Below are positions 4,875-54,106 of a stretch of DNA of 64,000 bases, in pieces; position 1 is the stretch's first letter, and the number at the start of each line of letters is the position of its first letter. The notes under the pieces were generated by a model, which saw only the letters and a list, made by a program, of their open reading frames with translations, searched no databases and was not told the origin of the DNA. This DNA is from Rhodococcus sp. (in: high G+C Gram-positive bacteria). GTDB lineage: Bacteria > Actinomycetota > Actinomycetes > Mycobacteriales > Mycobacteriaceae. Where the stretch lies: positions 756-64,755 of the forward strand of contig JBCEBZ010000111.1 in the NCBI GenBank assembly GCA_039206675.1. The letters run 5' to 3'. Position numbers and translations under genes: made by a program.

Positions 4875-6114
4875 GCAGCGACCCCGCAGATCTCAGTGTC
4901 CTTGGGGCGACAGCACTTAGGGGAGCCTTACTTTTGTTACCGACGGGTAGTGATCGTGGCTTCCGGTGATCGCACGACGGCGAATGTGACATATCTCCCG
5001 TCGGCTTCCGCGCGGTCGCGTCGCCGCAATTACGACTAATCGGACATCGGAAGCGTCGCGTCGCGAGAGGGCGTCTCAAATGCTGGGATGGGGTCGCGAT
5101 GTCGCCGCCCCGTCCCGCCCGCGCCGCGATGGCGCCCGCGCTTCCCGTGGCAGGTCAGCGGTCGATCTGCCACCATTCCGATGTGCGCATCGCGGTGGTC
5201 GGGCGTCCAGTTTTCCGCTCGTTGCCGAGGGGCGACGGACCTGGTCGGTTATTCCCTGCACGCAACCTCGGGTGTTTGCCGTTTTGAGACCTGCGCGGGG
5301 CTTTGGTAGACACGGTGGTTGGCAAAAACTGCGGTCACGGGGGGCAGTGGGTGTTCAACGCCGCGGTCGATCACCGGATCGGCCGCACCGTGCACGGAGA
5401 CAGTCGGGAGGCGGAACATGAAACTGGATACGACAGTTGTACACCTAGCGAAATTCCGACTCTCGGTACGGTATCCGCGTTCGGGTTGGACGCGACGCCC
5501 GGAATGTGGTTCTGCCTGTTGAATATGAGCGCGTCGAAGGTCGAATTCAGGCCTGGTTCTGGAAGTATCGAGGGTTGGGTACGTCACACCAGCGTCGGTA
5601 ACGGTACTGGATCTGACACCGATGTAATTCCCGGCGTTGCCGCGGAACCGTACGAACCGAGATCGTCACCACCGAGCGAGAGGAGGCCGAAGCGATGATC
5701 GCGACGATGTTTCGTTCCCTCACCAGCGCCGTAGACTCGGCTCTCGACTCGGAGGATGACGAGCACCGATTGGGTGGCCGCTTGTTGGATCGATGAGAGA
5801 ACGGAGCCACGTATGAACCCGCTCACCGCAAGTAGTTCGGGATGTAAGGGCCTTGGAGTGTTCAGCGTCGCAGGCAATCGGGTTTCGGACGATCGTCTGA
5901 CATCGACTCCGAGTGTGGTGGAACTCTTCGATCAGCGCAGGTCGTCCCGCGCTCGGCACGTCCCTGTTCCGCGAAAAGCTTCGAACCGGCAAGGCCCGTC
6001 CATGTGATGGCGTTCATCGGAAGACCGGCCCCCGGCGCAGTCCGCGGGACCGAGAGCTACGAATCACCAAAGACACAGGCGGCAGTCGCCACGCGTTCGA
6101 GAACGGAGTAACCC

Positions 6115-39930
<33,816 letters not shown>

Positions 39931-39939
39931 TCTCCGAGC

Positions 39940-39978
39940 GACCGTGGTGGGGAGGGTCCTCGCCTTCCCACCACGGTC
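39940..39978. terminator. Strong GC-rich hairpin between the convergent NRPS and sigma-factor genes (candidate bidirectional terminator)
   Basis: 39940-39955 (GACCGTGGTGGGGAGG) pairs with 39963-39978 (CCTTCCCACCACGGTC): 16 bp with one G-U and a 7-nt loop. It lies 10 nt after the NRPS stop and 5 nt before the sigma stop. There is no U-tract, which is common in actinobacteria. Confidence 0.6.
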
Positions 39979-39982
39979 CGCC

Positions 39983-40918
39983 TCAGCGGCTCACCGCCGT
40001 TTCCCTCTCGACCCGCGACAGTTTCTCGGGGTTGCGCACGATGTAGAGCCCGGTGATCAGGCCGTCGTCGATCCGTACGGCCACGACGTCGTCGATCTCC
40101 CCGTCGAGTCGGACGATCAGCGCGGGGGAGCCGTTCATCTGCACGGGTTCGACCGACACCTCGCCGCCGATCCGGGGCAGGCCGGCCGCCAGCAGACGTC
40201 CGACCTTGTCGGCCCCGACGATGGGTCGCAGCACGGCCTGCTTGACTCCGCCGCCGTCACCGAGGAGGACGACGTCCGGTGCGAGCTGATCGAGCAGGCT
40301 CTGCAGGTCGCCTGTCTCGAGCGCCCGTGTGAACGCGTCGAGCGCATTCCGGGACTCGGCCGGAGTGACGGCGCCCCGCGGCCGGCGCGCCGCGACGTGG
40401 GCCCGGGCCCGGTGCGCGATCTGACGGACGGCGTCGGTGCTCTTGTCGACGGCGGCCGCGATCTCCCCGTACTCCAGATCGAACACCTCACGCAGCACGA
40501 ACACCGCCCGCTCGGTCGGTGCGAGCGTCTCGAGCACCAGCATCATCGCCATCGAGACGCTGTCGGCCAACTCGACGTCCTCGGCCACGTCGGGCGCGGT
40601 CAGCAACGGTTCGGGTAGCCAGGGGCCGACATAGGACTCCCTGCGCCTGCCGAGCGTGCGCAGCCGGACCAGGGCCTGGCGGGTGGTGATCCGGACCAGG
40701 TACGCCCGCTGATTCCGCACCGTGCCCAGATCGACGCCCGCCCACCGCAGCCACGTCTCCTGGAGGACGTCCTCCGCGTCGGCGGCCGAGCCGAGCATCT
40801 CGTAGGCGACGGTGAACAGCAGATTGCGGTGGGTGACGAAGGCGTCGGTGGCGGGATCGGAACGGGCATCACCGGTTCCGCTGCGATCGCCGGGAGTGGT
40901 CTGCGACGTGCCTGCCAT
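39983..40918 (-). CDS. ECF sigma factor, group ECF41 (SigJ-like) with a fused SnoaL-like C-terminal regulatory domain
   Basis: Sigma-2/sigma-4 regions are present (LLFTVAYEMLGSAADAEDVLQETWLRW; ERAVFVLREVFDLEYGEIAAAVDKSTDAVRQIAHRAR). A ~100-aa extension carries the two ECF41 hallmark motifs as I recall them (DGGGxK: LGDGGGVKQ; NPDKL-like: NPEKL). The preferred start is the ATG at 40918, 7 nt after AGGAG. The ORF-track start at 40984 adds 22 implausible residues. Confidence 0.85.
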   Translation of the reverse strand: MAGTSQTTPGDRSGTGDARSDPATDAFVTHRNLLFTVAYEMLGSAADAEDVLQETWLRWAGVDLGTVRNQRAYLVRITTRQALVRLRTLGRRRESYVGPWLPEPLLTAPDVAEDVELADSVSMAMMLVLETLAPTERAVFVLREVFDLEYGEIAAAVDKSTDAVRQIAHRARAHVAARRPRGAVTPAESRNALDAFTRALETGDLQSLLDQLAPDVVLLGDGGGVKQAVLRPIVGADKVGRLLAAGLPRIGGEVSVEPVQMNGSPALIVRLDGEIDDVVAVRIDDGLITGLYIVRNPEKLSRVERETAVSR

Positions 40919-40956
40919 GGGTGGCTCCTGTTCGTTCTCGACGGTGTCACACACCA

Positions 40957-40983
40957 GACACCGCGACCCGCTGTTTTGTGACA
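40957..40983 (-). promoter_or_regulatory. ECF41-type promoter candidate upstream of the sigma gene (TGTCACA-N16-TGTC on the minus strand)
   Basis: The plus-strand TGTGACA at 40977-40983 reads TGTCACA on the minus strand. Sixteen nt downstream on that strand lies TGTC (40957-40960). The ECF41 consensus as I recall it is TGTCACA-N16-CGTC. The start codon is about 40 nt further on. Confidence 0.4.
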
Positions 40984-41006
40984 ACTGACAACCGGACGGG
41001 AGCGAC

Positions 41007-41033
41007 TGTCACAGAAATCGGGCGGCCGGCATC
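41007..41033 (+). promoter_or_regulatory. ECF41-type promoter candidate upstream of the CMD gene (TGTCACA-N16-CATC)
   Basis: TGTCACA at 41007-41013, a 16-nt spacer, then CATC at 41030-41033. The CMD start codon is at 41082, preceded by GAGGA. Confidence 0.45.
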
Positions 41034-41081
41034 TCATGTTCGTTCAGTGCAGCACACGACACCACGAGTGAGGACGAAGTC

Positions 41082-41567
41082 ATGGACGCTCGATTCAATC
41101 TGTTCGCCAACGAGATCGCCCTGAAGTTCGGCAAGCGGTTCGCCAACGCCGCCCAGGCAATCGACCAGTCGCCGCTGCCGAGGACTACCCGGACACTGGT
41201 CGAGATCCGGGCCAGCCAGATCAACGGCTGCGGCTTCTGTACCGACATGCACACGAAGGATGCCGCGGCCGCCGGCGAAACCCCGGTGCGGCTCAACCTG
41301 GTCGCCGCCTGGCGCGAGGCCACCGTGTTCACCGAGGCGGAGCGGGCGGCGCTCGCTCTCGCCGAGGAGGGAACCCGGCTCGCCGACGCTCACCACGGCG
41401 TTTCCGAGGACACCTGGGACCAGGTGCGGGGGCACTACGACGACGACCAGATCGCCGCCCTGGTCTGCCTGGTCGCCCTGATCAACGCCGCCAACCGGAT
41501 CAACGTGATCGTGCGCAACCCGGCGGGAACCTACGAGCCCGGCATGTTCGCGAGCATGACGAGCTGA
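41082..41567 (+). CDS. Carboxymuconolactone decarboxylase-family (AhpD-like) protein
   Basis: 161 aa with the AhpD/CMD CxxC-type motif in context (RASQINGCGFCTDMHTKDA) and the usual helical repeat. CMD genes are the classic conserved neighbours of ECF41 sigma factors. Confidence 0.85.
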   Translation: MDARFNLFANEIALKFGKRFANAAQAIDQSPLPRTTRTLVEIRASQINGCGFCTDMHTKDAAAAGETPVRLNLVAAWREATVFTEAERAALALAEEGTRLADAHHGVSEDTWDQVRGHYDDDQIAALVCLVALINAANRINVIVRNPAGTYEPGMFASMTS

Positions 41568-41577
41568 CCGGAAGGGG

Positions 41578-41595
41578 TCGTGGGCGAGCCCACGA
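41578..41595. terminator. Short GC hairpin between the convergent CMD and N-oxygenase genes
   Basis: TCGTGGG-cgag-CCCACGA: a 7-bp stem and a 4-nt loop, located between stop codons at 41565-41567 and 41616-41618. Confidence 0.3.
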
Positions 41596-41615
41596 GAGCC
41601 GACTTCCCCGCGGAG

Positions 41616-42575
41616 TCAGGCCCACTCGTACGACATCTCGCCCGCGACCCCGAGGTGCTTGCACAGTTTGTGGATGCCCCCGAAATCCTGGACCAGCGCG
41701 GATCGGCGGGTGTCGTGTTCGGCGTCGTCGATCATCGCCTGACCGCCGTCCAAGTCCAGGATGTCGACGATGGTGCGCCAGGTCGAGTAGTCGTTGCTGC
41801 TGAATGCGGTCATCGCGTCGACGAGCCCGTCGAGGAAGAGCCGCCGGTCGCCGGGGTCGAGGGTGTCGTAGACGACGCCCGCGATGTCGTCGGCGATCGA
41901 GGCGTGACAGTACTCGTCGCGATTGTGCAGCCGGACCGTCGCCCGATTGACCGGCTGGATGGCGTCGTTCTCCGAGATCAGGTCGAGGTAGGAGCTGATC
42001 GAGATCTCCGCCACCGTCATGAAGGCGAACGTCGTGATCGCCCGCTGCCTCGGGTCGGCGGCGTCGGCCGTCGCCGCGCGTTGGCGGCGCAACGTCAGGA
42101 CGTCGGGAAGGGCGTTATTCGGCATCGCCCAACCGCGTTTGCGGCGCGTGACCGCGCTCGCGTTCAGGTGCATGAGGGTGTGGTACTGCTCGTCCACCAT
42201 CGCCTGGTGGACGGCCACCGCGAACGTGTCTCCGAGCCCGGTGTCCAGGGCGTCGTGCGCGACGAGGTCGAATCCGGGATTGACCACGTACTGCTCGATG
42301 TCCATCACGTTCTTGTTGAACGCGATCCAGGCCCACGCCCGCAGCTGGTTCCGTTGCTCCTCGCCCATGCGGAGGAACCGGTCGTGATCGGCGAACGGCA
42401 GCAACTCGTTCGGGTAGTCCTGCTTGCCGAGGTCGAACAGCGCGTCGAGGTCCGGTTCCGGCTTCTTCACGGTCGCCCGCTGCCCCCAGTTGCGGGCGAG
42501 CCGCGTCACGACGGCACTCTCCACCGGATCGGACGGGTCGTATTCCGGGAGCGAGGGAATGTTCTGGGTCGTCAT
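41616..42575 (-). CDS. AurF/CmlI-family diiron arylamine N-oxygenase
   Basis: 319 aa from the ATG at 42575 (GGAG 7-10 nt upstream; this ATG overlaps the papC stop as ATGA). The ligand pattern is E94, E129-x-x-H132 (DEQYH), E190, and H217-x3-E221-x2-H224 (HNRDEYCH). It mirrors AurF E101/E136/H139/E196/H223/E227/H230 with a constant 6-7 residue offset. The ORF-track N-terminal 155 aa is an Arg/Pro-rich out-of-frame overlap with papC. Confidence 0.85.
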   Translation of the reverse strand: MTTQNIPSLPEYDPSDPVESAVVTRLARNWGQRATVKKPEPDLDALFDLGKQDYPNELLPFADHDRFLRMGEEQRNQLRAWAWIAFNKNVMDIEQYVVNPGFDLVAHDALDTGLGDTFAVAVHQAMVDEQYHTLMHLNASAVTRRKRGWAMPNNALPDVLTLRRQRAATADAADPRQRAITTFAFMTVAEISISSYLDLISENDAIQPVNRATVRLHNRDEYCHASIADDIAGVVYDTLDPGDRRLFLDGLVDAMTAFSSNDYSTWRTIVDILDLDGGQAMIDDAEHDTRRSALVQDFGGIHKLCKHLGVAGEMSYEWA

Positions 42576-43492
42576 GACGCATCTCCGTTCCGCGGCTGTC
42601 GGTGAACGAGATCGGTGAAGAGGTCGGCGCACAGACGGGCGAGGGGTTCGTGCCGGTCGCCGAGAGGGGACGTCGCGCGGGACATGAGCGCGGCGAAATC
42701 GTCCTCCGAGCCGTGCTCGACGGTGTCGGCGAGAGTGGCGAGCGCGGCGGCGAGCGCGCGGCGGGCGTCGCCGGCGTAGGGATTGCCGGCCTGGATGTCC
42801 CGGTAGACCTCGGGGACGCCGCCGCCGACCCGTGCGAGGAGGGCGAGCGAGACGAGATGCGGAGGGGTGCCCACCGCGGTGAGTTCGGCGCCGTCGACAC
42901 CGAGTTCCGCGAGGGCGAGACCGAAGGCGAGGACGCCGGCGTGTGTCAGTGCCTGGGTCGCAGCCGTGAGCCGGTCGTGGTGTTCGGCGTCCAGGCGAAC
43001 CACCGAGGATCCCCAGCCGGACAGCGTCGAGAGGAACCATTCGACCCCGCCGCCGTCCCGGTAGGTCACGGCCGCGACGGGACGGCCCTCCGGTCCGAGG
43101 GACGGCGCGAACATCGGGTTGATGCCCACCGCGCCGCCCCGCAGTGCGCTCTCCCGCAGGGCCGCATCGAACCGGGACTTCACGGACAGCGTGTCGACCA
43201 GCAGTGCGTGGTCGCGCAACCCTGCGACGACGAACGGAATCGACTCCAGCGCGACGCTTTCCGGTATCGCCAGGATCACCACGTCGGCGGCCTGCACCAC
43301 CGCGCGCAGCTCCGGCGACGGGTCGGTGACGTCGCCCTTCATCTGATCGGCGTCGGACCGGTCGGTGAATCGGATGTCGATGGTGCGCACCGTGTTTCCG
43401 TCGGAGCGGAGCCGGGTGGCGAGCATCCGGCCGACATCGCCCGAACCGCCGATCAGTGCGACGGTCCGGGTGGACGCGGCCGGGACGTTCAC
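42572..43492 (-). CDS. papC: Prephenate-dehydrogenase-family enzyme (PapC-like 4-amino-4-deoxyprephenate dehydrogenase)
   Basis: 306 aa from the GTG at 43492, which overlaps the papA stop as GTGA. N-terminal Rossmann motif VALIGGSGDVG. TyrA-like INPMFAPSLG and DAEHHDRLTAATQALTHA. Its position in a papB-papA-papC operon supports the call. Confidence 0.8.
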   Translation of the reverse strand: MNVPAASTRTVALIGGSGDVGRMLATRLRSDGNTVRTIDIRFTDRSDADQMKGDVTDPSPELRAVVQAADVVILAIPESVALESIPFVVAGLRDHALLVDTLSVKSRFDAALRESALRGGAVGINPMFAPSLGPEGRPVAAVTYRDGGGVEWFLSTLSGWGSSVVRLDAEHHDRLTAATQALTHAGVLAFGLALAELGVDGAELTAVGTPPHLVSLALLARVGGGVPEVYRDIQAGNPYAGDARRALAAALATLADTVEHGSEDDFAALMSRATSPLGDRHEPLARLCADLFTDLVHRQPRNGDAS

Positions 43493-45561
43493 TGCCCGAT
43501 CTCGTTCGGCCGGTCGGCCGTCACCGACAGCGCCCGCAACATGGTGGCCGCCTTGACCATTGCCTCGTCGAACTCCTCCTCCGGGTCCGACAGCGCAGTG
43601 ATCGCACCGCCGATGCCGAACGTCACCTCGCTGTCGGTGGCGACGATCGTGCGGATGACGATGGACAGGTCGGCCGTCCCCGTGAGGGAGAAGTACCCGA
43701 TCGAACCGGAATACACCCCGCGCGGGCCGGACTCGAGCCGGTCGATGATCTCCATGGTCCGGATCTTCGGGGCGCCCGTCATCGATCCGCCGGGGAAGGC
43801 GGCACGGACGCACTCGACGACGGAGGCGTCGGCGCTGAGGGTTCCGCGCACGGTCGACACGAGTTGATGCACGGCGGCGTACGTTTCGACGTCGAACAGC
43901 TTCGGAACGTGCACCGAGCCGGGAACGCACACCCGGGCCAGATCGTTTCGCGTCAGATCGACGATCATCAGGTTCTCGGCGCGATCCTTTTCGCTGTCGA
44001 GCAGATCCTGCCGCAGCGCCGCATCCTTCGCGGGGGTGGCGCCGCGCGGACGGGTCCCCTTGATGGGTTTGGACTCCACCACCCGGTCCGCGCCGATCCT
44101 CAGGAACCGTTCGGGGGAGGCGCTGAGAACGGACAGCCCGGCGAACTGCAGGTACGCGCTGTACGGGGTGGGGCTGATGGAGCGCAGCAGTTCGAACGTG
44201 TGCAGGGGATCGATCGACTGGTCCACGGTCGCCATGTTGGTCAGGCACACCTCGTAGGACTCGCCGGTCCGGATCTCGCCGAGCGACGACGCGATGTGGT
44301 CGAGGTACTTGTCGTGGTCGTGGCGCAGAGCCAGTTCGGCGGATTCCGGCTTCCGGATCGGCGGCACCGCGGTCGGCGGCTGATCCGGTTCGGCCAGCCG
44401 GTGCAGCGCCGCCTCCATCTCGTCGAGCCAGCGGCGCAATTCCGGATCGTCCGGGTGGTCGCTCAGGCACAGCGCGTAGGTGCGCTCGTTCGAATGGTCG
44501 ATGACCACGGCGCGGTCCGCGAACACCAGTGCGGCGTCCGGGGTGGGCGACTTGTGTGCGGCCGCTCCGCCGGTTTCGGCCTTCAGTTCGTAGCCGAGGT
44601 AGCCCACGTAGCCGAGGCCGAACGGCACACCCGGCAGCCCGGGCACGGACCGTGCCTGCAGTTGCCGTTCGAGGTAGTCGAAGAACGGTGCGTGCACCTG
44701 TTCGACCGGCAATCCCTCGCGCGTGATCCGGACGATCGCTTCGCTGACGTCGTACGTGATGTACTCGGCGCGAGGACCGGAACAGTTGCCCATGATCGTG
44801 AAACGCGAAGTCGGCTCGGACGCCGACGTCCCGTCGAGCCAGAACGCGTTGGGACCGGACGCGAACAGATCCTCGAACGTGGTGCGGGGGTCGACCTCGT
44901 GGTCGACGCGCACCTGCTGGACCACGTACGGCGCGTGGGGGATCGGGATTCTGAGCAGGGAGCCGTGTGTGGGTGTCCCGGAATGCGTCTGCGTGAGGTC
45001 GCGGAAGTTCGCGAGCAGTTCGTGGCCGAAGGCGGTGCTGATCGATTCGGGGTGGAACTGGACGCCCCACAGCGGGCGAGTGCGGTGCCGCACGCCCATC
45101 AGGAGTCCGTCGGCCGTCCAGGCGGTGGCCTCGAGATCGTCGGGGAGATCCTCGACGATCAGCGAGTGGTAGCGGACCGTCGGGAACGGTGACGGAATGC
45201 CGGCGAAGAGTTCGGAACCGTCGTGGTCGACGAGGGACACGCGGCCGTGCATCGGTTCGGGCGCGAGCACCACCTTGCCCCCGAACAGCTGGCACAGCCC
45301 CTGGTGGCCGAGGCAGACGCCGAGCACGGGGAGTTCGGTCTCCCGGATGATGCGCGCACTGATCCCGAAGTCGCGTTTCCGGTCCGGCCTGCCGGGGCCG
45401 GGGGAGATGACGATGTTGTCGAAGTCGGACCAGGGGATCGAACCCCATTCCACATCGTTGTGCACGACCGTGGGCGGTTCGCCGTTCACCTCGGCGAGCA
45501 GGGTGAACAGGTTGTAGGTGAAGGAGTCGTAATTGTCGACCAGCAGCGTCCGGGTACTCAT
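43489..45561 (-). CDS. papA: Fused PabA-PabB-type 4-amino-4-deoxychorismate synthase (PapA-like)
   Basis: 690 aa from the ATG at 45561. The N-terminal class-I glutamine amidotransferase has LLVDNYDSFTYNL and the GVCLGHQ catalytic Cys. The C-terminal chorismate-binding domain has SPERFL, PIKGTRPRG and GSMTGAPK. Confidence 0.9.
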   Translation of the reverse strand: MSTRTLLVDNYDSFTYNLFTLLAEVNGEPPTVVHNDVEWGSIPWSDFDNIVISPGPGRPDRKRDFGISARIIRETELPVLGVCLGHQGLCQLFGGKVVLAPEPMHGRVSLVDHDGSELFAGIPSPFPTVRYHSLIVEDLPDDLEATAWTADGLLMGVRHRTRPLWGVQFHPESISTAFGHELLANFRDLTQTHSGTPTHGSLLRIPIPHAPYVVQQVRVDHEVDPRTTFEDLFASGPNAFWLDGTSASEPTSRFTIMGNCSGPRAEYITYDVSEAIVRITREGLPVEQVHAPFFDYLERQLQARSVPGLPGVPFGLGYVGYLGYELKAETGGAAAHKSPTPDAALVFADRAVVIDHSNERTYALCLSDHPDDPELRRWLDEMEAALHRLAEPDQPPTAVPPIRKPESAELALRHDHDKYLDHIASSLGEIRTGESYEVCLTNMATVDQSIDPLHTFELLRSISPTPYSAYLQFAGLSVLSASPERFLRIGADRVVESKPIKGTRPRGATPAKDAALRQDLLDSEKDRAENLMIVDLTRNDLARVCVPGSVHVPKLFDVETYAAVHQLVSTVRGTLSADASVVECVRAAFPGGSMTGAPKIRTMEIIDRLESGPRGVYSGSIGYFSLTGTADLSIVIRTIVATDSEVTFGIGGAITALSDPEEEFDEAMVKAATMLRALSVTADRPNEIGQ

Positions 45562-46025
45562 CACGACTCGACATTCGCAGACGGCACGGAACCGTGCCGA
45601 ACCTGGTGGTTGCCGGCGTGGCTGTGGCTGCCGTGGTGGTTGCCGTTGTGGCGAGGGCCCTCGTCGGCGGCCTCCGCGTTGATCACGAGGTCCTCGAGCC
45701 GGCACGTCTCGGCGATGAGGAGGTCGTAGAGCGAATCGAAGAACTCGGGGGAGAGGGAATGGCTGTCGGCGTACTGACGCGCCCGTTCGTGGACGATGTG
45801 GATCCGGCCCGGCTGCATCATGGCGATGTGCTCGCGCCGCTTCAGTTCACCGATCCGCAGGCACACTTCCAAACGCTGCCGGACCGTTTCGAGCAGGGTC
45901 GCGTCGACGGCGTCGAGTTCCGCGCGCAGACCCTCGAGTGCGTGCTGCGCCGAGGCGTCAGAATGCTCTCCGGAATCGTCGCCGTTCCGCTGTTCTACGG
46001 AGAAGTACATAGTCGCCCCACTCAC
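45561..46025 (-). CDS. papB: AroQ-type chorismate-mutase-like protein (PapB-like 4-amino-4-deoxychorismate mutase) with a His-rich C-terminal tail
   Basis: CM_2 signature LRAELDAVDATLLETVRQRLEVCLRIGELKR..............ERARQYA. The stop TGA shares one nt with the papA ATG (TGATG). The start is either the GTG at 46025 or the ATG at 46010 (MYFSV). The C-terminal ~38 aa contain 7 His. Confidence 0.75.
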   Translation of the reverse strand: MSGATMYFSVEQRNGDDSGEHSDASAQHALEGLRAELDAVDATLLETVRQRLEVCLRIGELKRREHIAMMQPGRIHIVHERARQYADSHSLSPEFFDSLYDLLIAETCRLEDLVINAEAADEGPRHNGNHHGSHSHAGNHQVRHGSVPSANVES

Positions 46026-46241
46026 TCGATCGGCAGTAGCTTTCTCATCCCGACTATCGTGTGTCGTTGGTGGTTCGTTTCCACGAGCCTTCCGGATGGC
46101 CGGGAGTGCCGTGGTCGATCGGCCGAAAAACGAACCAGGTGGGTTATCACCCCCGGAGTCTCGATCTCAGGTTGAGACTTTGGTGGACGGTTGGCTAACG
46201 TAACCTGAAGTCTATTTCCGCAAACTCAGGATACGAGGAAT

Positions 46242-47177
46242 ATGCGTATATCGTCGGCCACTAGGGCTCTGTTGTGTGCGCTGGCAGGCATCGTGATGCT
46301 GTGCAGTGCGGCACCGGCGGCAGCGGATCCCGTGGAAGCGGAACCCGCGCCCGTGGTCGATCCGTCCGCGCTGCCCGGGGCGAACGACTGGAGCTGTACG
46401 CCGTCCGCGGCGCATCCACGTCCCGTCGTGCTGGTGCACGGCACCTGGACCGGCATGGTGGGGACGTGGAAGGACCTCGCTCCGGCGCTGAGCGCGGAGG
46501 GCTACTGCGTCTTCGCCCTCAACTACGGGCAGGCCGCCGGTCTGACCAAGGGCAACATGATGCGCATGTTCGGCGGCGCCGACATCGAGGAGTCCGCTCG
46601 GCAGCTCGCCGGGTTCGTCGAGCTGGTCCGCACGGCCACAGGTGCTCCGCAGGTCGACATGATCGGGCATTCGCTCGGCGGCACGGTATCCCGCCAGTAC
46701 CTGCGATTCGAAGGTGGCGCCGACCGGGCGAATCCCGCGCTGAACAAGGTGCACTCGCTGGTCACGCTCGGCGCCACCAACCACGGCACCAGCTTCGGGG
46801 ACGTCCAGTCGCTCGGCGCGATCGCGCAGGCACTGGGTGTGCCGGTCACGACGCTCGCCGGTGTCGCGGTCGGGCCGTCGTACATCCAGCAGATGGTGGG
46901 CTCGCCCTTCCTGCAGCTCCTCAACGCGGCAGGCGACACCGATCCGGGCATCGACTACACGGTGGTCGCCAGTCGCAGCGACACCGTGTCGACCCCGCCG
47001 GAGAATACGTTCCTGACGGCCGGCCCGTGGGCGACCGTGCACAACATCTGGCTTCAGGACGGCTGCGACACCAACACCGCGGAACACGACCAGCTGACGA
47101 CCGACCCGCGGGCCGTGTACATCATCCAGCGGGCACTGGACCCCGCCTACGGAGACCGCAATCCCGCGCCGTGCTGA
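46242..47177 (+). CDS. Secreted alpha/beta-hydrolase lipase/esterase (lipase class 2-like)
   Basis: Signal peptide MRISSATRALLCALAGIVMLCSAAPAAA-DP. PVVLVHGTW oxyanion region. Nucleophile elbow GHSLGG. AGGAA-type RBS before the ATG. Confidence 0.7.
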   Translation: MRISSATRALLCALAGIVMLCSAAPAAADPVEAEPAPVVDPSALPGANDWSCTPSAAHPRPVVLVHGTWTGMVGTWKDLAPALSAEGYCVFALNYGQAAGLTKGNMMRMFGGADIEESARQLAGFVELVRTATGAPQVDMIGHSLGGTVSRQYLRFEGGADRANPALNKVHSLVTLGATNHGTSFGDVQSLGAIAQALGVPVTTLAGVAVGPSYIQQMVGSPFLQLLNAAGDTDPGIDYTVVASRSDTVSTPPENTFLTAGPWATVHNIWLQDGCDTNTAEHDQLTTDPRAVYIIQRALDPAYGDRNPAPC

Positions 47178-51774: not shown

Positions 51775-53052
51775 TCAGTGCCCCAGGAGCACGGCCGTCA
51801 TCAGGGTGTGGAGGCGGGCGCGCGACTCCTCGCGGGTGTCGAAGTGGACCAGTCGGCCGATGTCGAGCACCAGTCCCAGTGCCGCGTGCACCAGGAACCG
51901 TGCCTCCGGCGCCGAGAGCTCGGTCCGCACGGCGGTCACCAGGTGGACCCATTCCTCGACGTGCAGGCGCTGCACGTTACGGAGATTCGTCCGCTCGTTC
52001 TTCGGGAGGTTCCCGATCTCCGCGAAGTAGACCGACAGCACTTCCGGGTTCCCGAACGACAGTTCCAGGTACGACTCGGCGAGCTTGCGGAGGGCGTCCT
52101 CGGGGTCGGTGGCGGTGGACAGCGCCGCCGACGTGGCCACGGCCAGACGGTCGGACGCGCGGTAGAACACCGCCGCCAGAAGGTCTGCCTTGCTGGGGAA
52201 GTGGCGGTACACGCTCGACGCGTTGATGCCGGCGGCGGCGCCGATCTCCTCGATGCTCGAATCGTGGTAGCCGTGCCGGTCGAAGATCTTGACGGCCTCG
52301 TTGATCAGCAATTCGCGCTTGGACGTCACGGCCAGTCCCCGCACCGGGCCGGCGCCGCCCCTGCCCGCGTTCGGGACGGCGGGCGGAAGTGTCGCGTTCA
52401 GGACCGACCCGCACGCCGACTTCAGGAGTGTGTCGAGTCTGCGGGTGGCGAGGGTGGTCCGGTGTGCGCTGATGCTGCCCAGCACGCTCAGTGTCGACGC
52501 CCCCAGCGTCGTCGCGTCGACGGCGGTGAGTTCGGGGCGAATCTCGCGCAGCGGCGCGGCCACGCACTGGGTGACGTGGACGAAGACGGCACGAATCCGC
52601 TTGCGGTCCTCGGCCTCGAGGTACCGGCCCTCCCAGCGGTAGAGCCCGGCGACCTTGCGGTTCTCGATGCTGTTGGCGACGAGCGCGGCGATCAGGTGTT
52701 CGAGGCGGTCGCCGGGGTCGAGTTCGGCGACCCCGCCGAGTGCGCCGTCCGCGGTTGCCTGGAGCGCGTCGGCCGTCGTCGTCGCCGCGTGGACGAGCAG
52801 GGCGTACTTGTTGGGATAGTGCCGGTACAGGGCGGGGCCGGAAATGCCGATGGTGGCGGCGATTTCGTCGACACCGACCGCGTGGTAGCCGCGCTCGCTG
52901 AAGGCTTCGGCTGCGACGTTCGCGATCTGGGCCTTGCGATTCTTGGGGCGGCGGCGGATCGGCCGGTCGGTGGCGGCACCGGCCGCCGTGCTGGTCCGGG
53001 CCACGGTCACCTCCAGTAGTGGCAGTCGCCTGCCGGCTTCTTTGTCAGTCAT
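51775..53052 (-). CDS. Tandem (duplicated) TetR-family regulator, Mce3R-like
   Basis: About 425 aa from the ATG at 53052. It has two complete TetR HTH units in one chain (IANVAAEAFSERGYHAVGVDEIAATIGISGPALYRHYPNKYAL and LINEAVKIFDRHGYHDSSIEEIGAAAGINASSVYRHFPSKADL). It is divergent from an echA-fadD-yrbE-mce operon, as Mce3R is in M. tuberculosis. The exact start is uncertain. Confidence 0.8.
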   Translation of the reverse strand: MTDKEAGRRLPLLEVTVARTSTAAGAATDRPIRRRPKNRKAQIANVAAEAFSERGYHAVGVDEIAATIGISGPALYRHYPNKYALLVHAATTTADALQATADGALGGVAELDPGDRLEHLIAALVANSIENRKVAGLYRWEGRYLEAEDRKRIRAVFVHVTQCVAAPLREIRPELTAVDATTLGASTLSVLGSISAHRTTLATRRLDTLLKSACGSVLNATLPPAVPNAGRGGAGPVRGLAVTSKRELLINEAVKIFDRHGYHDSSIEEIGAAAGINASSVYRHFPSKADLLAAVFYRASDRLAVATSAALSTATDPEDALRKLAESYLELSFGNPEVLSVYFAEIGNLPKNERTNLRNVQRLHVEEWVHLVTAVRTELSAPEARFLVHAALGLVLDIGRLVHFDTREESRARLHTLMTAVLLGH

Positions 53053-53166
53053 CTTAACCGAGACTCCCGCGCCGAAGACCCTCGGATGGTCCTCGTGCGC
53101 CGGAGTGTTCCCCCGGCGTCTCGATGAACTGCCAGCAAGACAGTGCGAAATGTGTTCCGGGAGGTA

Positions 53167-53196
53167 TTGACACGCATGGAACGTGGCCAATAAGTT
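53167..53196 (+). promoter_or_regulatory. SigA-like promoter candidate TTGACA-N18-TAAGTT for the echA-fadD-mce operon, with -10 overlapped by a GTTAAC motif
   Basis: TTGACA at 53167-53172 and TAAGTT at 53191-53196. GTTAAC at 53194-53199 belongs to the repeated motif described in the findings. Confidence 0.4.
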
Positions 53197-53287
53197 AACA
53201 GAAATTCGCGTTCGGCTGATGGTGTCTTCCATCGCCTCGACCCATCCCCGGCCTCGCCGGTCGATTCCCTCGGAGGTAGCTGGCTTC

Positions 53288-54106
53288 ATGAGTTCACCAC
53301 GGCAACCGTCGACCACCCCCACCGTCGCAGCAGACGGTCTGCGAGTGGTGGTGGACGGCGGGATCCTCCGGATCACGATCGACCGGCAAGACCGGATGAA
53401 TGCGCTCGATCTGGCTCACATGACCGCACTCGGCGACGTGCTCACCGGCGCCGCGGCGGATCCTGCCGTCCGCGTCGTCGTCCTCTCGGGTGCGGGCGCG
53501 GCATTCTGCACCGGCGCGGATCTCGCCGCGGCGGCCGCCGCGGGCGGCCGGGCGGCGCCGCCGGCGGTGGTGATGGATTCGGCCAACCGCGTGATCCGCG
53601 CGATCGTCGACCTCCCGATCCCGGTGATCGCGCAGGTGCGCGGCGCGGCTGTCGGTGTCGGGGCCTCCATCGCCCTGGCGGCGGACCTGACGTACGCCGC
53701 CGAGGACGCATATCTGCTCCTCGCGTTCGTCAACGTCGGTCTCATGCCCGACGGCGGGTCCAGTGCGTTGATCGCCGCCTCGATCGGCAGGGCGCGGGCC
53801 ACTCGGATGGCGCTGCTCGGCGAACGGCTGCCCGCCGATCGCGCGGCGGGGGAGGGCCTGATCGCCGGTGTGCTCGCGGCCGGCGACCTCGCGGCCCACG
53901 TCGATGCCGTCGCGGCGAGGCTGGCGCGTGGCCCGAGGCGGGCCGTCGCACTGACCAAACAGGCGCTCACGGAGTCCACGCTGACGGAGTTGGACCGGGC
54001 GCTGGGTCGTGAGAAGGCCGGCCAGGCCGAATTGCTCCGGTCTCCGGACTTCGCCGAAGGGGTCACGGCCATGCTCACGAAACGTGCTCCGAACTTCCGG
54101 AGCTGA
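53288..54106 (+). CDS. Enoyl-CoA hydratase/isomerase (crotonase) family protein
   Basis: 272 aa from the ATG at 53288 (GGAGG at 53272-53276). Crotonase hallmarks: ITIDRQDRMNAL, VVVLSGAGAAFCTGADL, FVNVGLMPDGG. The ORF-track start at 53183 adds an unlikely leader. Confidence 0.85.
   Translation: MSSPRQPSTTPTVAADGLRVVVDGGILRITIDRQDRMNALDLAHMTALGDVLTGAAADPAVRVVVLSGAGAAFCTGADLAAAAAAGGRAAPPAVVMDSANRVIRAIVDLPIPVIAQVRGAAVGVGASIALAADLTYAAEDAYLLLAFVNVGLMPDGGSSALIAASIGRARATRMALLGERLPADRAAGEGLIAGVLAAGDLAAHVDAVAARLARGPRRAVALTKQALTESTLTELDRALGREKAGQAELLRSPDFAEGVTAMLTKRAPNFRS

Follow-up and report, generated by a model that had tools for sequence, protein, structure and literature searches.

Few natural products are nitro-aromatic, and production of PAPA and p-nitrophenylalanine has been engineered with the help of pap pathways. 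Among described systems, PapA, PapB and PapC of pristinamycin I biosynthesis in Streptomyces pristinaespiralis belong to the same enzyme families as the proteins studied here (54%, 57% and 51% identity, respectively), and we take CmlB, CmlD and CmlC of the S. venezuelae chloramphenicol pathway to be orthologues of PapA, PapB and PapC. The S. pristinaespiralis locus has papC divergent from papB-papM, with papA on the other side, and also contains a PapM-like methyltransferase, an NRPS, a lysine-cyclodeaminase-family gene and a P450. The obafluorin system of Pseudomonas fluorescens (ObaC/ObiL with ObaDEF), to which we liken the present locus by description, joins a pap-type pathway to a diiron N-oxygenase to give an early p-nitrophenyl unit, in another taxon and with other downstream chemistry; ObaC acts on 4-aminophenylpyruvate/PAPA (10.1101/2021.09.29.462267). 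Within Rhodococcus, a four-gene pap/N-oxygenase block identical in make-up to the present one is already known as ra7-ra10 of the most widespread NRPS cluster family of the genus (Undabarrena 2021, PMC8477407), the 'GCF-1 / NRPS #5' family (MIBiG/antiSMASH 'corynecin'), in which it is accompanied by NRPS genes and a lipase. The corresponding proteins of Rhodococcus sp. H-CA8f are 48-54% identical to SVEN_0918-0920 (PMC8477407).

The window analysed here, a 64,000-nucleotide stretch of DNA from Rhodococcus sp., belongs to the Rhodococcus koreensis/opacus/jostii group, and its block is a local copy of the conserved pap/N-oxygenase 'arm' of this widespread family (Table 1). The four genes very probably form one transcription unit for an alternative shikimate branch to PAPA together with an aryl-amine N-oxygenase, likely feeding an NRPS. 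As in the pristinamycin and chloramphenicol pap systems, no dedicated aminotransferase accompanies them, and PapC shares the NPMF signature of its pristinamycin counterpart. Unlike in S. pristinaespiralis, the three pap genes are co-linear and overlapping with the N-oxygenase as fourth gene, PapM is lacking, and the NRPS that probably uses the product has nine modules and is of lipopeptide type, in place of SnbDE or CmlP. Mce and acyl-CoA genes lie near the block, and the GCF-1 'left arm' is matched upstream by genes for an acyl-CoA carboxylase, an ACAD, a dehydratase and a CoA-ester lyase. Subclade 4a is described as having 'one large nrps gene' adjoining ra7-ra10 (PMC8477407), and the window shows the same arrangement. 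Compared with the GCF-1 family, the window has an ECF sigma and CMD insertion between NRPS and N-oxygenase, all nine modules of its NRPS lie in one protein with T-E at the end, and the glycosyltransferase, ABC transporter and esterase of the erythropolis and fascians clades are missing.

Table 1. Coordinates of the pap/N-oxygenase block and neighbouring features in the window
Feature	Coordinates	Strand	Basis or remark
papB, AroQ-class 4-amino-4-deoxychorismate mutase homologue	45561-46025	-	CM_2, TIGR01803, PapB identity
papA, fused glutamine amidotransferase + aminodeoxychorismate synthase	43489-45561	-	Pfam, TIGR00553, 8hx6
papC, 4-amino-4-deoxyprephenate dehydrogenase homologue, TyrA fold	42572-43492	-	PDH_N + PDH_C, PapC identity
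Diiron arylamine N-oxygenase, AurF/CmlI family	41616-42575	-	PF11583, CmlI/AurF structures, metal ligands
Divergent intergenic region papB/lipase, 216 bp	46026-46241	.	Presumed promoter region of operon
NRPS, nine modules, 11,271 aa, convergent to pap operon	6115-39930	+	Motif map, Pfam, domain identities
ECF sigma factor, SnoaL-like C-terminus	39983-40984	-	Pfam; between NRPS and N-oxygenase
CMD-family gene	41082-41567	+	Pfam; between NRPS and N-oxygenase
Lipase_2/DUF7379 alpha/beta-hydrolase	46242-47177	+	Pfam; conserved neighbour of pap block and NRPS

The first-pass annotation had placed four minus-strand genes in the order papB-papA-papC-N-oxygenase between 41616 and 46025, and open reading frames of coding-type composition (GC3 of 0.83-0.92 in each) were located exactly there, the 5' end of papB being ambiguous between a GTG at 46025 and an ATG at 46010. 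Direct reading of the sequence also agreed with the junctions that it had described: the papB (mutase) stop and papA ATG share 1 nt in TGATG (gagtcgTGATGagt), the papA stop and papC GTG overlap by 4 nt in GTGA (gggcaGTGAacg), and the papC stop and N-oxygenase ATG overlap by 4 nt in ATGA (gcgtcATGAcga). The GTG start call for papC is supported by R. tibetensis (locus L011), since ATGA stands at the start of papC there. Junctions in the opacus/jostii/koreensis-clade loci are identical (-1/-4/-4 nt), the overlapping stop and start codons of these same-strand genes being kept in relatives; those in other clades range from -4 to +9 nt. Overlaps of 1 and 4 nt are nonetheless commonplace in Rhodococcus operons, occurring at six of the 10 junctions of the S10 ribosomal-protein operon used for comparison and, in one Rhodococcus locus, at both of those within an ABC transporter operon. 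Of the proposal that every junction is translationally coupled, the overlaps stand, and coupling itself is plausible from the sequence; stoichiometric co-expression, which had been said to follow, is not implied by overlaps so ordinary in the genus.

The operon is flanked by the divergent lipase gene upstream (46242) and the convergent CMD gene downstream (41567), and on this basis the four genes are taken as a complete unit. No match to the sigma-70 consensus was found in the papB/lipase intergenic region, a scan of 39800-46400 for promoter and terminator consensus sequences returned nothing above shuffle expectation, and Rfam gave no matches at the gathering threshold across the whole window.

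Profile searches set the mutase apart from the primary chorismate mutases: it matches Pfam PF01817 (CM_2, 4.2e-16) and passes the TIGR01803 CM-like model (80.7 bits, cutoff 73.35), and it falls below the cutoffs of 11 other CM/IPL models, all primary chorismate-mutase equivalogs among them. Its identity to S. pristinaespiralis PapB extends over 65 aa, including the MMQP.RI and ETCRLED motifs, and its C-terminal tail is His-rich and clade-specific. It is thus assigned to the PapB (TIGR01803 CM-like) family as a predicted 4-amino-4-deoxychorismate mutase. The synthase combines GATase (residues 6-186), Anth_synt_I_N and Chorismate_bind (416-670) domains, and its top PDB match is 8hx6, annotated as '4-amino-4-deoxychorismate synthase', over its full length (E=3.6e-248). 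The translation contains GVCLGHQ, FHPES and KPIKGTRPRG, and so both the catalytic-Lys PIKGT motif and the GATase Cys-His-Glu triad; we take the PIKGT Lys to be the ADCS-type catalytic residue (K274 in the PabB literature), TrpE-type enzymes presumably having PIAGT. These features indicate a putative fused PapA/PabAB-type aminodeoxychorismate synthase. Its placement, for which separation from both TrpE and PabB had been proposed as a check, came out clear on one side: all TrpE models scored below cutoff, and TIGR00553 pabB was passed (363.6, cutoff 328.4). 'PapA versus PabB' is not a functional distinction, as both are ADC synthases whose pathways are told apart only by gene context.

The dehydrogenase has PDH_N and PDH_C domains and fell below every TyrA equivalog cutoff (99 bits at most, where the lowest cutoff is 273), with scores under 30 bits against PRK06545-type models whose cutoffs exceed 400. 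Its closest characterised relative is S. pristinaespiralis PapC (identity over 275 aa), the gene of which adjoins PapB, PapM and PapA homologue genes. At the position of the TyrA catalytic His it carries Asn125, within NPMF, where solved TyrA enzymes have HPMF or HPMA; this Asn is common to 119 of the 120 closest homologues. The window protein is 100% identical to one from a Rhodococcus MAG. Judged by these sequence features, it would be a PapC, distinct from housekeeping TyrA.

The same placements bear on whether the genes might be primary-metabolism paralogues, of folate PABA and tyrosine biosynthesis, brought together by chance. The PapA reaction is that of folate PabAB, and AroQ and TyrA have the CM_2 and PDH Pfam domains too. 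Against such an origin, the secondary-metabolism 'CM-like' model is the only one that the mutase passes, the dehydrogenase scores below all TyrA equivalog cutoffs and has Asn where TyrA has its catalytic His, the N-oxygenase gene overlaps papC, the best characterised relatives of PapA, PapB and PapC all lie in the pristinamycin pap locus, and an ADC lyase is absent from the window ORFs scanned. We regard a chance assembly of paralogues as very improbable.

The window ORFs scanned include neither an ADC lyase (Aminotran_4) nor an aminotransferase, and for this reason the reading of the locus as a branch to PAPA, and not to PABA, holds. The first-pass annotation had drawn this conclusion from the combination of a mutase and a dehydrogenase without an ADC lyase, and had remarked on the missing aminotransferase; both points are borne out, the former also by the identities to the pristinamycin pap proteins. 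We infer the following route. PapA would convert chorismate and glutamine to 4-amino-4-deoxychorismate, which PapB would rearrange to 4-amino-4-deoxyprephenate and PapC would oxidatively decarboxylate to 4-aminophenylpyruvate. A housekeeping aromatic aminotransferase encoded elsewhere would then yield L-PAPA, and the diiron enzyme would oxidise the aryl amine towards a nitro group at some stage of the pathway. In E. coli, the pap pathway is reportedly completed by the host's own aminotransferases (10.1101/2021.09.29.462267).

The fourth gene encodes a member of the AurF family (PF11583, 5.6e-50), which shares its fold and seven metal ligands with CmlI of S. venezuelae (5hyg/5hyh) and AurF of S. 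thioluteus (3chh/2jcd). It is closer to CmlI (5hyg, 2.5e-77, 263.6 bits) than to AurF (3chh, 1.6e-43, 152.6 bits), although only 43% and 32% identical to them. Residues E94, E129, H132, E190, H217, E221 and H224 align to the seven AurF diiron ligands (E101, E136, H139, E196, H223, E227 and H230) and are all invariant in our alignment (A1). With the NCBIfam AurF model NF045603 it scored 173 bits, far short of the cutoff of 620, and Asn89 aligns to AurF Arg96, a position also occupied by Asn in CmlI; the enzyme is therefore an AurF-family member but not an AurF orthologue. AurF Arg96 presumably binds the PABA carboxylate, and this position was considered as a discriminator between PAPA- and PABA-type enzymes. 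It was dropped because the closest Streptomyces relative (57% identity), which adjoins an ADCS gene, a PabC-like Aminotran_4 gene and type II PKS genes, also has Asn; an Asn found in Streptomyces relatives in a PABA context is not diagnostic, and the substrate of the N-oxygenase cannot be read from its sequence.

The orthologue in R. jostii NBRC 16295 is 91-92% identical to the window enzyme, and 10.1101/2021.09.29.462267 names the R. jostii orthologue as one of the characterised N-oxygenases ('AurF(RJ), Indest et al. 2015'). According to the same source, free PAPA is not efficiently converted by CmlI or AurF, which makes early oxidation by the CmlI-like window enzyme uncertain. Identities of 43% and 32% do not fix the oxidation state of the product, and the AurF family includes AzoC, which gives a nitroso intermediate for azoxy formation (PMC6783550). 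The window enzyme could accordingly stop at the hydroxylamine or nitroso stage and so lead a PAPA-derived scaffold into azoxy, N-hydroxy or other N-N/N-O chemistry. This is improbable, given that the corynecins from a strain with an orthologous block are nitro compounds and that the R. jostii orthologue is cited as noted among characterised N-oxygenases, and oxidation towards the nitro group is preferred.

Conservation of the block extends across the genus. Its four-gene order is kept, with tight junctions, in 36 species-level loci from three Rhodococcus/Prescottella clades, and a further 28 loci keep only papC and the N-oxygenase. In 57 of the 64 loci, papC and the N-oxygenase have an NRPS no more than 10 kb away, whilst the genomic context varies, the S10 ribosomal operon adjoining the block in R. 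qingshengii and fascians-type loci. The proximity of an NRPS across such differing contexts argues for a functional link between the pap genes and the NRPS. According to PMC8477407, the NRPS part is highly variable between clades and the pap arm is conserved; the lipase is listed there as 'ra1', and we detected a homologue of it in 41 of the 64 loci, R. qingshengii and fascians-type loci included. The ECF sigma and CMD insertion is probably not biosynthetic. Both genes are absent from that position in R. opacus (locus L001), where the gap is 74 bp; the ECF sigma factor is present in three loci (L003-L005), and the CMD gene had no match in any Rhodococcus locus compared.

The window NRPS is the probable consumer of the pap pathway product. 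Its layout is Cstarter-A-T-E, six C-A-T modules, C-A-T-E and C-A-T-E, with no TE or R release domain. The terminal domain had been a candidate release condensation domain, which was ruled out by its 50-51% identity to the two internal E domains and by its E-domain motifs EGHGRE, RTVGWFT, GIGYG and FNYIGR. Since no release domain follows the final T-E, the window may not hold the whole assembly line. Ten-residue A-domain codes were extracted by our own motif mapping, the validation of which is that A9 gives a known code (DAWQFGLINK, which we take to be Gln and the only one of the nine recognised). By this mapping none of the nine A domains carries a canonical aromatic code; the code of A3 (DQKNLGNVTK) is odd, and the only code type shared across clades is D[VL]W[DH][FL]ILVSK, Ser-like in appearance. 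The pap/N-oxygenase block would most likely supply a p-amino- or p-nitro-phenyl unit to this convergent nine-module NRPS, and to possible partners encoded elsewhere. Points against this role are the missing aromatic codes and release domain, the variability of the NRPS part between clades, and the 28 loci reduced to papC and the N-oxygenase.

The product of the block can be read in more than one way. One is that the operon serves to make corynecin-type chloramphenicol analogues (N-acyl p-nitrophenylserinols) and that the giant NRPS belongs to a merely neighbouring cluster. In Rhodococcus sp. H-CA8f, a carrier of the same four-gene block, LC-HRMS dereplication revealed corynecins I-III (PMC8477407), and 'corynecin' is the antiSMASH/MIBiG label for this cluster type (PMC10819586). 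That LC-MS match, to small N-acyl p-nitrophenylserinols and not long peptides, is the only chemistry tied to the block so far, and the missing aromatic A-domain codes and the CmlI-like character of the N-oxygenase fit it as well. If chloramphenicol biosynthesis is the guide, p-nitrophenylserinol would require a CmlP-like A-T-R NRPS, a CmlA-like beta-hydroxylase and an N-acyltransferase. Among the window ORFs scanned there is neither an NAD_binding_4/R domain nor a Lactamase_B-type hydroxylase, and the R. qingshengii, fascians-type and R. hoagii loci have neither within 10 kb of the block; CmlP-like and CmlA-like genes could lie elsewhere in the genome. The recurrent NRPS association, moreover, argues against mere neighbourhood. 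We consider a corynecin-only role for the operon unlikely.

Another reading, which we regard as less likely than not, is an undescribed N-acylated nonribosomal peptide of at least nine residues, with D-residues and a p-nitro- or p-amino-phenyl unit, which the CmlI-like oxygenase would oxidise late, once it had been assembled. The aryl unit would in that case be loaded by a non-canonical A domain (e.g. A3) or by a partner NRPS docking on the T-E terminus. As a byproduct of the same reading, the His-to-Asn change in PapC would be a mechanistic switch fitting the TyrA scaffold to a 4-amino substrate. A literature search for Rhodococcus peptides with nitro- or amino-phenylalanine found nothing relevant.

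The window adds one orthologous copy to a known block and no new kind of system. Rhodococcus has this block in dozens of species, yet the product evidence stops at an LC-MS match to corynecins, and a locus without CmlP/CmlA equivalents, an aromatic A-domain code or a release domain sharpens the question of what its true product is.

All four minus-strand ORFs and the three junctions described in the first-pass annotation were confirmed by direct reading of the sequence: TGATG between papB and papA (1-nt overlap), GTGA between papA and papC (4-nt overlap) and ATGA between papC and the N-oxygenase gene (4-nt overlap). Third-position GC of the four ORFs was 0.83-0.92 in a window of roughly 69% GC, which is typical of real genes, whilst the papB start is ambiguous (GTG at 46025 or ATG at 46010). 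On its 5' side 216 bp separate the unit from a divergent lipase gene, and on its 3' side it meets a convergent CMD-family gene; it is therefore a complete four-gene operon. The overlaps make translational coupling plausible, but the stoichiometric co-expression also claimed does not follow from overlap alone. Overlaps of 1 or 4 nt were found at six of ten S10-operon junctions and at both ABC-transporter junctions of one Rhodococcus locus, and are no special feature in this genus.

Genes of the pap operon and its neighbourhood, in window positions
Feature	Position	Strand	Basis or location
NRPS, single protein, 11,271 aa	6115-39930	+ (convergent with operon)	Domain layout
ECF sigma factor with SnoaL-like C-terminal extension	within 39983-41567	-	Between NRPS and N-oxygenase
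CMD-family gene, divergent from sigma gene	within 39983-41567	+	Between NRPS and N-oxygenase
N-oxygenase	41616-42575	-	ORF, Pfam AurF
papC, dehydrogenase	42572-43492	-	ORF, Pfam PDH_N + PDH_C
papA, fused synthase	43489-45561	-	ORF, Pfam GATase + Anth_synt_I_N + Chorismate_bind
papB, chorismate-mutase-like	45561-46025	-	ORF, Pfam CM_2

Placement of the three pap proteins, a check proposed alongside the original call, was carried out using curated NCBIfam cutoffs. The mutase exceeded the cutoff only in TIGR01803 'CM-like' (80.7 bits vs 73.35) and fell below it in 11 chorismate-mutase and isochorismate-lyase models. The synthase passed TIGR00553 pabB (363.6 vs 328.4) and no TrpE model, and the dehydrogenase fell below the cutoff of every TyrA model (best 99 bits vs 273), scoring <30 bits against PRK06545-type models with cutoffs >400. 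The nearest solved structure to PapA was 8hx6, a 702-aa '4-amino-4-deoxychorismate synthase' (E=3.6e-248). In the PapA translation, a KPIKGT motif accompanies the Cys and His-Glu motifs of the GATase part. A homologue search with PapC recovered P0215, a 296-aa Streptomyces pristinaespiralis protein flanked on one side by a CM_2 gene and a methyltransferase and on the other by a 719-aa synthase, a P450, a lysine-cyclodeaminase-family gene and an adenylating enzyme, with a 5,166-aa NRPS close by. From this context and the pristinamycin literature, we take this to be the pristinamycin locus and P0215 to be its PapC; the window proteins are 51% (PapC), 57% (PapB) and 54% (PapA) identical to the trio. 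PapC carries Asn125 (GINPMF; window 43118-43120, minus strand), whereas Haemophilus influenzae TyrA, soybean PDH1 and the solved prephenate dehydrogenase 3dzb have the His of HPMF/HPMA, the catalytic residue of TyrA. This Asn was common to 119 of the 120 best PapC homologues, including that of S. pristinaespiralis, and may serve as a simple sequence marker telling PapC from TyrA. Separately, PapB ends in a His-rich low-complexity tail, HNGNHHGSHSHAGNHQVRH (window 45561-45690), C-terminal to the CM_2 domain, which is variable in sequence and confined to the opacus/jostii/koreensis clade.

Gene context, with PapB and PapC encoded and no ADC lyase in the set of window ORFs that was scanned, points to a PAPA-derived substrate for the N-oxygenase, and the earlier preference for the PAPA over the PABA branch was correct in substance. 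The window likewise contains no aminotransferase gene, as first described; in Escherichia coli the pap pathway reportedly relies on host aminotransferases for its completion (10.1101/2021.09.29.462267). The N-oxygenase is closer to CmlI (5hyg; 2.5e-77, 43% identity) than to AurF (3chh; 1.6e-43, 32% identity), and scored far under the NCBIfam AurF cutoff (173 vs 620 bits), indicating a family member rather than an AurF orthologue. Residues E94, E129, H132, E190, H217, E221 and H224 align with the seven AurF metal ligands and were invariant across a 14-sequence alignment. The site aligned to AurF Arg96 is Asn in both this protein and CmlI; as a sign of a non-PABA substrate it was rejected, as the closest Streptomyces relative (57% identity) also has Asn, yet adjoins an ADC synthase, a PabC-like Aminotran_4 gene and type II PKS genes. 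The closest Streptomyces relatives of the N-oxygenase thus belong to another type of cluster: in Streptomyces lincolnensis, locus L087 (8673-19139) encodes DAHP synthase II, an N-oxygenase, ADC synthase, PabC-like Aminotran_4 and KS/CLF/ACP type II PKS genes, a cluster that suggests a p-nitrobenzoate-primed polyketide.

Within Rhodococcus, identity of the N-oxygenase is 97% with its counterparts in R. koreensis DSM 44498 and two further strains, and 91-95% with the orthologues of R. opacus, R. wratislaviensis and R. jostii; a Rhodococcus MAG encodes a 100%-identical PapC. The R. jostii orthologue is counted among previously characterised enzymes in 10.1101/2021.09.29.462267. Across 80 species-representative loci, papC lay immediately 5' of the N-oxygenase gene in 64. 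All four genes were kept in order in 36 loci, spanning the opacus/jostii/koreensis, erythropolis/qingshengii and Prescottella clades, with junctions of -1/-4/-4 in the first and -4 to +9 nt in the others. Only papC and the N-oxygenase gene were kept in 28 loci of the Rhodococcoides fascians clade (entered as L016-L043, L056 and L084), where papB and papA were not found within 10 kb, a DUF4442 gene precedes papC, and the NRPS, lipase, glycosyltransferase and ABC transporter are retained. An NRPS condensation-family match occurred within 10 kb in 57 of the 64 loci and a lipase homologue in 41. In R. qingshengii and fascians-type genomes the locus adjoins the S10 ribosomal operon, but in the window it adjoins Mce genes; persistence of the association despite these differing positions supports a functional link between the pap block and the NRPS. 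In R. opacus DSM 44188 (L009, 7006-9072), the papA match ends at about 280 residues, with 650 nt to the next in-frame start, which suggests a disrupted gene or an assembly error.

The adjacent NRPS comprises nine modules (Cstarter-A-T-E, six C-A-T, C-A-T-E and C-A-T-E). Its terminal domain (window 38500-39930) has E-domain motifs and shares 50-51% identity with both internal epimerisation domains. The protein ends T-E and lacks a thioesterase, a reductase and a terminal condensation domain; release or continuation would therefore occur in trans, and on domain content this ending implies a partner synthetase or trans-acting release enzyme probably encoded elsewhere. The nine extracted A-domain codes were DVWSLALVHK (twice), DALFVGGVMK, DALFVGGIMK, DQKNLGNVTK, DTGVVGAVIK, DLWHLILVSK, DAFFSALIWK and DAWQFGLINK (Gln), with no canonical aromatic code among them. 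Module 3 (window 14400-17500) has an unusually long C-to-A spacing (~130 extra residues) and an atypical A domain, with PTMVPMLG after the A3 motif, FDQTQKN in the A4 region and the code DQKNLGNVTK.

The sigma and CMD genes form a pairing that resembles ECF41-type sigma/COE modules. R. opacus has only 74 bp and no such insertion at this gap. R. koreensis and two closely related strains also carry the sigma gene; the Rhodococcus loci fetched gave no CMD match. Genes of acyl-CoA metabolism and an operon for an Mce transporter occupy the window flanks. The 1.2 kb 5' of the NRPS start (4875-6114) is ORF-poor and lower in GC (about 0.65), with no Pfam match in its short ORFs and no Rfam match. A TetR-family ORF (51775-53376, minus strand) has two TetR_N and two TetR_C matches and is thus a duplicated, tandem regulator, an arrangement also seen in the R. 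opacus (L001) orthologue.

The operon is orthologous to a Rhodococcus gene block that has been described before and whose enzyme families are well understood. Genes ra7-ra10 of Undabarrena et al. 2021 (PMC8477407) encode an AurF-like N-oxygenase, TyrA-like dehydrogenase, ADC synthase and chorismate mutase, make up the conserved 'right arm' of the NRPS gene-cluster family most abundant in Rhodococcus, and are 43-54% identical to chloramphenicol genes SVEN_0918-0920 and SVEN_0924. As in the window, subclade 4a of that study has ra7-ra10 contiguous with one large nrps gene. The same work proposed a link to corynecins, N-acyl p-nitrophenylserinols, from LC-HRMS dereplication alone, and antiSMASH now labels the cluster type 'corynecin' (PMC10819586). 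Neither a CmlP-like A-T-R module nor a CmlA-like hydroxylase was found in the window, or in the 10 kb around the block in three other clades, so gene content lends the corynecin assignment weak support. Possible entry points for the aryl unit are one of the nine A domains, a partner NRPS docking on the terminal T-E, or a separate small-molecule route. A lipopeptide bearing a p-nitro- or p-amino-phenyl group, made with trans-acting partners, is a tentative candidate for the product.
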